IMG/VR virus record: IMGVR_UViG_2579779052_000008
Coordinates: 1-42,184 of that record
Origin: a virus
Lineage: Duplodnaviria; Heunggongvirae; Uroviricota; Caudoviricetes
Length of the DNA stretch: 42,184 nucleotides
Reading direction: 5' to 3' (one strand)
In this document: one piece after another, positions 36,001 to 39,000 of the stretch
Layout of the letters: each line of letters starts with the position of its first letter
How positions within the stretch are numbered: the stretch's first letter is position 1
Program-made: the position numbers

Positions 36001-39000
36001 CCATATCCCGCCATCTCGCCACCCCCCCCTTCGCTCGTTTTTCGAACTTTTCAGCACCCATCCTGCTGTTGCCACCGACTTAAGTAAGCAAAACCATCGC
36101 GGGTAAAACTATTTACACAAAAAAATCATACACATAACGTGTCACACCTTTATTTTACACATTTTGTGATTGACCATTAAATCACAATATGTGACTATCA
36201 TTTCCATCAGCAGGACGCTGGAAGCCAAACGGAACAGATTGGCAGGCTCTTTAACATCGACGGACTCTCAACCTAACCGTTGAGACCAGAACTTGAGTGG
36301 TTTTGGGGATGGCGCGAATTGCAGCTGCAAGACAGCGATCGAGAAGATAAGCACCTCGACGCGTCATGCGCCAAAGCCACTTAAAGGAGACCATCATGGT
36401 AACCATTGTCTGGAAAGAATCCAAAGGTACGGCAAAAAGCCGCTACAAAGCTCGCAGAGCAGAACTTATTGCCGAGCGACGCAGTAATGAAGCACTGGCG
36501 CGAAAAATTGCGCTAAAGCTCTCTGGTTGCGTCAGGGCAGATAAAGCAGCATCACTCGGAAGCCTTTGCTGCAAGAAGAAAGAAGAAGTCTTTCGAAAAA
36601 ATAGAAGTATTTATTACAAGGATTCAAACCCATTAGGAAACAAAATACATGCAGTCCAAAAAGTAAAATTGTACGGTAAACTACCGTACGGTGCTTATTG
36701 AGTATGCTTATGGTGAAAAAGACTATTTATGTTAATCCTGACCGCGGACAAAACAGAAAAGTATCTGATAGAGGCCTTACATCTCGAGACAGGAGGAGAA
36801 TAGCGAGATGGGAAAAGAGAATGGCATATGCATTAGAAAACGGTGTAACACCTGGATTTAATGCTATAGATGACGGTCCGGAATATAAGATTAATGAAGA
36901 CCCAATGGACAAAGTTGACAAAGCATTAGCAACACCATTTCCTCGCGATGTCGAAAAAATTGAAGATGAAAAATATGAGGATGTAATGCACAGAGTTGTT
37001 AATCACGCTCACCAACGAAACCCAAACAAAAAGTGGTCATAACCAGCTCAGGCGGATTTCATTTTCACGCAAACAACAGAATAAACACTGCACTGTGTAT
37101 TCATTCCGACGAGTGAATACACGGAGCAATGTCGCTCGTAACTAAACAGGAGCCGACTTGTTCTGATTATTGGAAATCTTCTTGGCCCTCCAGTGTGAGG
37201 GCGATTTTTTATCTGTGAGGATATGAACAGATGTCAAACATCAAAAAATACATCATTGATTACGACTGGAAAGCATCAATAGAAATTGAAATCGACCATG
37301 ACGTAATGACAGAGGAAAAACTTCACCAGATTAATAATTTCTGGTCAGACTCTGAATACCGACTCAATAAACACGGCTCTGTATTAAATGCTGTATTAAT
37401 CATGCTGGCGCAACATGCTTTGCTTATAGCAATTTCAAGCGACTTAAATGCATATGGTGTTGTGTGTGAGTTCGACTGGAATGATGGAAATGGTCAGGAA
37501 GGATGGCCTCCAATGGATGGTAGCGAAGGAATAAGAATTACCGATATCGACACATCTGGAATATTTGATTCAGATGATATGACTATCAAAGCCGCCTGAG
37601 CGCGGCTTTACCGCATACCAATAATGCTTCACGAGAGGCATTTTCGTTATGCAATCAAATATAAGGAGTTACCCATGATGCACTTTCAGCTCGCGGGTAG
37701 CGGCGTCATGTCCGCTTTCTACCCGCACGAATCTGAATTATCACGCCGAGTTAAACAATTAATCAGAGCAGCAAAGAAACAACTGGAGGCGTTATGCGCA
37801 ATGAAATAGCCATTAATCACCAGATGCTTCGTGCTGCACAGAACAAAGCAGTAATAGCCCGATTTATTGGTGATTCAAAAATGTGGCTTGAAGCAAATAA
37901 AGCGATGAAATCAGCTATCAACCTTCCGTGGTATCGCAGGAAATGAGTTTTACAGATAACTGGTCAGACGAAGAATTCATTCGTCAGATGAAAGATTTAA
38001 TCGGTAACGAAGGAGATATTCATGTCACTTGCAACCACAGTGAAGGAGAGCAAGTTACAGAGACGCATGTACACGCAGCAGGCGTTAATGTATCGCCAGA
38101 AGGGAGATCGTGAAGGTGTTCGCGTATTTTTAAATGCGGCAAAGACTGAAGTATTAAATCAGCGTTATTTACTTGGGCCGTGTCCATTCTGAGGTGAATT
38201 ATGGATTTGAACAAATTCGATGAGCCATTCAGCCCTGAAGATATCGAATGGCGAATACAGCAAAGCGGTAAAACACGCGATGGCAAGGTGTGGGCCATGG
38301 TGCTGGCTTATGTCACGAACCGGGCAATCATGAAACGCCTGGACGATGTTTGCGGCAAAGCAGGATGGCGCAATGAATACCGCGATATTCCCAACAACGG
38401 CGGAGTTGAATGCGGCATATCAATCAAGATTGATTCCGAATGGGTAACCAAATGGGATGCTGCTGAAAACACGCAGGTAGAAGCCGTCAAAGGCGGTCGT
38501 TCCGGTGCAATGAAGCGCGCTGCCGTTCAGTGGGGAATCGGTCGGTATCTGTATAACCTTGAGGAAGGTTTTGCACAAACATCTCTCGATAAAAAGCAGG
38601 GATGGCACAGGGCAAAACTGAAGGATGGAACAGGATTTTACTGGCTCCCTCCATCGCTGCCGGGATGGGCAATCCCAGCATCAGATAACAAACCATCACC
38701 AGAAAATACCAACCAGAAATCTCCATCGGTTGACTGCGAACAAATCCTGAAAGACTTCAGCGATTATGCGTCAACAGAAACTGACAAGAAAAAACTCATC
38801 GAGCGTTATCAGCGTGACTGGCAATTAATGGCTGGCAACGAGGAGGCGCAGGCTAAATGCGTTCAGGTAATGAACATCAGAGTTAACGAACTAAAACAGG
38901 CGGCATAAATGTCTCACTTGGACGGAATTATTAAAAGATTCGAGTCCAGCTACAAAGTTAATGAAACAACAGGTTGCTGGGAGTCTACCTATTCAAAAAA

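Follow-up and report, generated by a model that had tools for sequence, protein, structure and literature searches.

A poly-C tract of variable length upstream of pL in a lambdoid immunity region is most likely an ordinary mutable repeat

Several homopolymers of G or C close to bacterial promoters are phase-variable, among them the poly-C tract of Bordetella fim, the poly-G tract of Neisseria porA and the poly-C tract of opc. Tracts of this type separate the -35 from the -10 hexamer, or an activator site from the core promoter, and changes in the number of units alter the spacing of these elements. An uninterrupted mononucleotide run becomes prone to strand slippage at a threshold of roughly eight or more units, and substitutions beside repeats can arise by transient misalignment. 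Uninterrupted homopolymer runs are also where the errors of long-read sequencing concentrate. A second kind of element with which a C-rich sequence may be compared is the Rho utilization site, exemplified by rutA and rutB of lambda tR1.

A run of eight C is found in the left arm of the immunity region of a tailed phage (IMG/VR record IMGVR_UViG_2579779052_000008; the whole stretch of 42,184 nt that was analyzed is hereafter the window). Taken as a whole, the window represents a myovirus prophage of the SfI/SfII-like type, and its early region is lambdoid. The gene order of the left arm is cI, a 348-aa cargo gene, an intrinsic terminator, a spacer, OL/pL, nutL and a phage-21-type N gene, with all of these features on the plus strand. 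The cI repressor (34163-34810) combines a helix-turn-helix (HTH_3/HTH_31) with an S24 peptidase domain (Pfam Peptidase_S24, 3e-26), and its counterparts in relatives are annotated as CI or as LexA-family proteins. The cargo gene (ORF348, 34836-35882, from the ORF list) occupies the rex position as the final gene of the cI operon. Its product belongs to phrog_6191, a family of unknown function, is described as membrane-anchored and has no match in Pfam, PADLOC or PDB. The operon is closed by an intrinsic terminator (35891-35920, with the hairpin at 35891-35914) that was located by a terminator scan and is made up of a 9-bp stem with 6 G-C pairs, a 6-nt loop and a T6 tail. Lambda has an identical hairpin (CCCGGCCTCAGCGCCGGG) after rexB, and in VT1-Sakai the counterpart is annotated as the terminator of the pRM transcript.

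On the far side of the spacer, transfer of the VT1-Sakai annotation by alignment places OL3 at 36128-36144, OL2 at 36155-36171 and OL1 at 36180-36196, and the inverted repeats detected at these operators support the assignment. The operator-like palindrome WYACACRNNNNGTGW has zero-mismatch matches only at OL (2 sites) and OR (34088). The pL promoter (36170-36198) has the -35 hexamer TTGACC, a 17-nt spacer and the -10 hexamer GACTAT; it was assigned from the VT1-Sakai annotation, a relaxed hexamer scan and alignment with lambda, and its +1 falls at about 36206 by alignment with lambda pL and the lambda transcript start ATCAGCAGGACGC. Homology to phage 21, mEp235 and HK629 starts at about 36204. 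Direct reading of the sequence identifies nutL at about 36246-36285 as a boxA (GCTCTTTAA) and a phage-21-type boxB hairpin, and the annotations of its counterparts are nutL in VT1-Sakai and boxA in mEpX1. The N antiterminator gene (36396-36701, from the ORF list) matches phrog_271 (N-like, E = 1.4e-29) and encodes a phage-21-type arginine-rich motif (GTAKSRYKARRAELIAERR); its counterparts in relatives carry an N annotation. The arm has the make-up of a lambdoid left arm: an intrinsic terminator with the lambda hairpin closing the cI operon, three operator palindromes that overlap a sigma-70 promoter and match the operators at OR, and the boxA and boxB of nutL followed by N.

The tract itself is a C8 homopolymer at 36022-36029 on the plus strand (G8 on the minus strand), as determined by direct reading and a regular-expression count. 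Positions 36010-36039 read GCCATCTCGC CACCCCCCCC TTCGCTCGTT, and the neighbors of the run are A at 36021 and T at 36030, so that it consists of exactly eight C. An earlier note on this sequence, which reported nine C at about 36022-36030, had overcounted by one base; its placement of the tract between the cI-operon terminator, at 35891-35914, and OL/pL was correct. C8 is the longest run of C or G in the window, the runners-up being three C6 runs, and the longest G run is of 5 or fewer. Its presence is nonetheless statistically unremarkable and not beyond chance, as an i.i.d. model predicts 0.70 runs of eight or more C in the window and a first-order Markov model 0.46, with G runs adding 0.25-0.37 to the expectation.

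Is the tract a constant part of this immunity region? Over the segment that starts at the terminator stem, takes in OL/pL and extends to N, megablast finds 98-99% identity between the window and VT1-Sakai (Sp15), mEpX1, PDP110P1 and phiSTEC801-Stx1a, which differ from the window in the cargo genes upstream of the terminator. Homology to relatives with a different upstream cargo begins exactly at the terminator. Of 5,426 complete E. coli genomes, 105 carry the spacer. The sample compared here comprises 31 related sequences, the window included, and was drawn from 12 IMG/VR contigs and 4 metagenome contigs (found by pattern scans in which the flanks were fixed and the gap between them was free), four phage records and ten E. 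coli chromosomes. A pattern scan of genome contigs gave 0 matches, and a distant-mode blastn search against phages for distant relatives of the spacer returned only the same six close records.

Within the spacer a 10-nt polymorphic patch (36021-36030, plus strand; ACCCCCCCCT in the window) lies between the conserved flanks CATCTCGCC and TCGCTCG. Eight alleles of the patch occur among the 31 sequences, 24 of which are interrupted and 7 uninterrupted. The interrupted alleles are ACCACCCCAT (n = 15), ACCACCACCT (n = 4), ACCACCCCCT (n = 3) and ACCACCTACT (n = 2), each with a segment length of 10. The uninterrupted alleles are more varied: C8 has a segment length of 10 and is carried by the window, E. 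coli 81EVA and 2017.10.01CC (n = 3); C7 has a segment length of 9 and is found in PK8241 and metagenome contig L019 (n = 2); C9, with a segment length of 11, occurs once, in KTa005; and FJ_Ec_21 alone has GCCCCCCCCCTT, a merged C9 from which A36021 has been lost, with a segment length of 8. VT1-Sakai (Sp15), mEpX1, PDP110P1 and phiSTEC801-Stx1a all have interrupted patches of constant length (ACCACCCCAT or ACCACCACCT), and most relatives with the same cI, OL/pL and phage-21-type N have no homopolymer at the patch.

Variation in length is restricted to the uninterrupted alleles. Four of the 7 uninterrupted alleles, but none of the 24 interrupted ones, have a length other than the modal 10. The hypergeometric p = 0.0011 for this contrast is nominal: it assumes independence, and it overstates the evidence in a sample with many clonal O157:H7 prophages. 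Compared across isolates, tract length is variable, with C7, C8, C9 and the merged C9 all represented among the seven. These alleles are found next to two right-flank haplotypes and to three or more different upstream cargos. C8 is not the quirk of one assembly, because its carriers differ mutually by ~30 substitutions per 4.3 kb. The interrupted allele ACCACCCCCT is one substitution away from each of three other alleles. The patch is also where the common polymorphisms of the spacer core mainly cluster, others being located in the terminator loop, at 36221-36230 and at one site at 35953. OL/pL is nearly invariant across relatives, with only two rare variant positions (36147 and 36149), both in the gap from OL3 to OL2. 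L008, the relative that diverges most, shows 16 differences over 213 nt of spacer versus 2 over 79 nt of OL/pL.

Together these comparisons suggest that C8 is a rare, derived and slippage-prone allele in a non-coding spacer, and that pL and immunity are most likely unaffected by its length. The starting point would be an interrupted C-rich motif (CCACCACC...), which is interrupted by A or T in most relatives (CCACCACCCCA, CCACCACCACC). A-to-C substitutions would remove the interruptions and produce an uninterrupted C run, which could then gain or lose units by strand slippage at replication to give C7, C8 and C9. We infer that the change ran from interrupted to uninterrupted, and that the length differences stem from real slippage and not from assembly error. 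The substitutions within the patch may themselves have arisen by transient misalignment. That the allele would be neutral is suggested by its position outside recognized elements, by its absence from most phages with the same cI, OL and pL and by the faster evolution of the spacer than of OL/pL in the most divergent relative.

The length differences could instead be artifacts of sequencing or assembly, with a tract that is stable in vivo and C7 and C9 produced by homopolymer miscalls in long reads. The sole difference between 81EVA and KTa005 over ~4.2 kb is C8 versus C9, which is the pattern of a miscall, and the deviations in length are confined to uninterrupted runs. The uninterrupted alleles sampled number only seven and come from assemblies of unknown chemistry; some of their length states may be homopolymer miscalls. 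However, four length states are seen in seven independent assemblies whose upstream cargos are of three or more kinds, C8 recurs in three non-identical genomes despite the divergence between them, and FJ_Ec_21 also lacks A36021, which is not a simple homopolymer miscall. Artifact as the general explanation is possible but unlikely. The earlier note had described the tract as a hotspot of slippage or of sequencing error; the length does vary between isolates, and the two processes it named give the same pattern in assemblies.

C8 lies inside the most C-rich and G-poor stretch of the window, and this stretch might itself be functional. The 80 nt at positions 35997-36076 (plus strand) contain 38 C and 9 G and form the top 80-nt window for C minus G in the whole 42 kb on either strand. 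RNA folding predicts the stretch to be mostly unpaired, in both the minimum-free-energy and the centroid structures. It is also untranslated, as it is located downstream of the ORF348 stop codon, the last of the operon, and its lone small ORF is without coding constraint. Its composition is what a rut site would be expected to have, and it could be regarded as a candidate rut-like region, on which Rho would load when transcription reads through the terminator, stopping the transcripts before nutL and N. The genes of the pL operon would then be insulated from pRM and pRE transcription in the lysogen, an arrangement that would be biologically sensible, and only C-richness would matter, the exact length of the tract being immaterial. 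The extent of the stretch is compatible with this proposal, since a rut site calls for C-rich, G-poor RNA of some 70-80 nt or more that is untranslated and has little structure, and the stretch has these features, the low structure by prediction. No allele of the patch contains G, all being built of A, C or T, but with about five substitutions this carries no significance. At the equivalent position lambda has a non-homologous spacer that is likewise C-rich and G-poor, with 49 C, 18 G and runs of C5 and C6. However, such a spacer is minimal or missing in phage 21, mEp235 (with P22-type immunity) and ECP1, and the C-rich stretch of PA28 is accounted for by a minus-strand ORF. The support is one of composition alone, the intrinsic terminator already looks strong, and literature support for Rho at this locus was not found. 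A role in Rho loading is accordingly doubtful. If true, a Rho-dependent backup terminator would be a small addition to how lysogens insulate N from transcription of the repressor operon.

Could the length of the tract modulate promoter spacing, as the earlier note proposed? The tract ends 98 nt before OL3 (36128) and 140 nt before the -35 hexamer of pL (36170), and it occupies about -177 to -184 relative to the pL start, some 180 nt upstream. No hexamer pair spans it on either strand, in a standard scan or in a relaxed scan that accepted at least 8 of 12 matches and spacers of 15-19. The tract cannot alter promoter or operator spacing because no promoter-like hexamer pair spans it, and a role in promoter spacing is at odds also with the lack of the homopolymer in most relatives that share the cI, OL/pL and phage-21-type N. 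As a contingency locus the tract is a mixed case: an uninterrupted run of eight is at the borderline of the slippage threshold, and length differs between close isolates, with assembly error as an alternative source of the difference, but the run is neither inside a -35/-10 spacer nor between a regulator site and a core promoter.

A phase-variable regulatory tract, the length of which alters pL through promoter or operator spacing or through the helical phasing of an upstream site, is highly improbable on these data. It is a G/C homopolymer of isolate-dependent length upstream of a major promoter, and a match to the IHF consensus (35961-35973, minus strand) and an AT-rich block lie beyond it. 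Set against this are its distance from the transcript start with no flanking hexamer pair or operator, the lack of a homopolymer in most relatives with identical OL/pL, and the status of the IHF match, which is of a kind expected by chance (the window has 2, versus 1.6 expected) and is changed at 35964, 35966 and 35967 in the divergent relatives L008 and L014. The more elaborate proposal that the poly-C allele is a hypermutable switch tuning read-through of the immunity operon into nutL and N, by Rho loading, by an i-motif or G-quadruplex (G8 with nearby minus-strand GGG runs) or by helical phasing of far-upstream sites, and so setting a heritable and reversible rate of spontaneous induction, is in all its parts jointly very improbable.

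Other features of the region were considered and set aside. A permissive Rfam scan of 35700-36500 gave only chance-level matches, all far under the gathering scores. A minus-strand ORF of 32 aa (35916-36014), for which the G-tract could be a possible Shine-Dalgarno sequence, was rejected as a gene: although it is open in all relatives, the substitutions in divergent relatives are almost all non-synonymous and it has no PHROG match. The direct repeat TGCCCGCCGRTC, present twice, and a 14-nt similarity between 35971-35984 and the pL/OL1 region are both short two-copy repeats that are indistinguishable from chance. Searches of the literature on mEpX1, on rexB, its terminator and Rho, and on bicyclomycin and O157 prophages brought up no mention of the tract or the spacer.

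The tract is thus most likely an ordinary mutable mononucleotide repeat in a non-coding spacer, for which a regulatory consequence is unlikely. In practical terms, assemblies of this prophage family are unreliable at the tract, which should not be read as a promoter-spacing switch, and it can be used as a fast-evolving marker among otherwise identical prophages. The map of the left arm of the immunity region is the more useful by-product, as it delineates a terminator identical to that of lambda joined to a conserved module of spacer, OL, pL and N. The slot upstream of the terminator exchanges very different cargo, including rexAB, a HigB toxin-antitoxin system, a DUF6932 pair and the 348-aa protein.

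How does the spacer compare with those of other lambdoid phages? The lambda spacer between timm, the terminator after rexB, and OL3 has the same position and the same gene order as that of the window. Lambda can be aligned with the window at the OL3-proximal A-run, the pL -35 hexamer and the transcript start. Homology of the spacer core to lambda was rejected, as the local alignment score of 18 equals the shuffle mean of 18 and is not significant. The two also differ in length, with 173 nt from the rexB stop to OL3 in lambda versus 245 nt from the ORF348 stop to OL3 in the window, and the lambda operators are of a different immunity type. In phage 21 the terminator abuts OL3. A C-rich spacer was dropped as a general lambdoid feature, given its lack in phage 21, mEp235 and ECP1 and the coding of the PA28 stretch on the minus strand; homology to the PA28 spacer or to its minus-strand ORF is likewise not significant.

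In comparison with rut sites, the stretch around the tract is similar in offering ~80 nt of C-rich, G-poor, untranslated and weakly structured sequence where a transcript should stop. Unlike sites such as those of lambda tR1, it follows a strong intrinsic terminator. The tract shares with those of Bordetella fim and Neisseria porA and opc a mononucleotide run of G or C near a promoter and a length that depends on the isolate. Unlike them, C8 is located ~140 nt upstream of the -35 hexamer, lies outside the operators and is absent from most relatives.

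The stretch between cI (34163-34810) and the terminator of its operon is a site of cargo exchange. This slot occupies 34811-35890 of the window and is also seen in the related sequences L001, L002, L025, L026 and L029-L032. Both cI (WP_001299796.1 in E. coli records) and the terminator/OL/pL block are constant across relatives whose slot contents differ, and downstream of these differing cargos the terminator stem is the exact point at which homology restarts. In G3/10 the slot carries rexA and rexB, and in the E. coli relative PK8241 it holds a HigB toxin, a helix-turn-helix (HTH) protein and a hypothetical protein. 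A DUF6932 protein with a hypothetical is found in mEpX1, FJ_Ec_21 and 47-1826, and two small hypotheticals in VT1-Sakai, EC31 and ET665. ORF348 is a further cargo among relatives with the same cI and terminator/OL/pL.

ORF348 (34836-35882, + strand; 348 aa) occupies the rex position and closes the cI operon. Its sole family match is phrog_6191, of unknown function (5.8e-36), and searches of Pfam, PADLOC and the PDB returned no relative. A single hydrophobic, transmembrane-like segment spans residues ~145-163. An identical protein, WP_001272876.1, is present in 81EVA, KTa005, 2017.10.01CC and HCM-25C-3. ORF348 is a candidate for exclusion or defence cargo.

Two sequence elements lie between the terminator and the C8 tract (36022-36029). 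Directly past the terminator is a direct repeat, TGCCCGCCGATC at 35920-35931 and TGCCCGCCGGTC at 35949-35960, with the copies 29 nt apart; no other site in the window matches CCCGCCRNYC, but 1.7 matches are expected by chance. A putative promoter follows on the + strand (35959-35986), combining a weak -35 (TCCAAA), a 16-nt spacer and a perfect TATAAT at 35981-35986 (9/12 hexamer matches), and it points to the tract and OL. If this promoter is active, the C-run would lie near the 5' end of the resulting transcript. A second polymorphic patch, at 36221-36230, precedes boxA and corresponds to ~+16 to +25 in the RNA made from pL. Two haplotypes predominate there, GGAA-GCCAAAC and GAGACGCCACAAG; their differences include a 1-nt indel, and the surrounding sequence is otherwise near-invariant among relatives.

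How does this region compare with those of other phages? The terminator hairpin of the window (CCCGGCCTCAGCGCCGGG, 35891-35914) matches the one that follows rexB in lambda exactly, in its loop as well as its stem. Closer relatives of the window spacer have the same stem with other loops (CACCGA, CACCGC). The lambda spacer from the rexB terminator to OL3 (lambda 35652-35824) is poor in G (18 among its 173 nt) and includes one run each of C5 and C6 type or more, though its core has no significant sequence similarity to the window spacer. In phage PA28, the interval between the repressor gene and pL contains an unannotated ORF of 88 aa in the opposite orientation (1143-1409, - strand of the PA28 sequence); this ORF includes a G7 run, equivalent to C7 on the repressor strand, and no similarity between this ORF and the window spacer was detected. 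Directly after N, a 114-aa ORF (36698-37042, + strand), whose TTG start overlaps the N stop codon, matches phrog_5632, a family of Nun-like transcription termination factors (2.6e-70). The phage thus seems to carry a Nun-like excluder alongside its N antiterminator, a combination also annotated in mEpX1 and mEp235.
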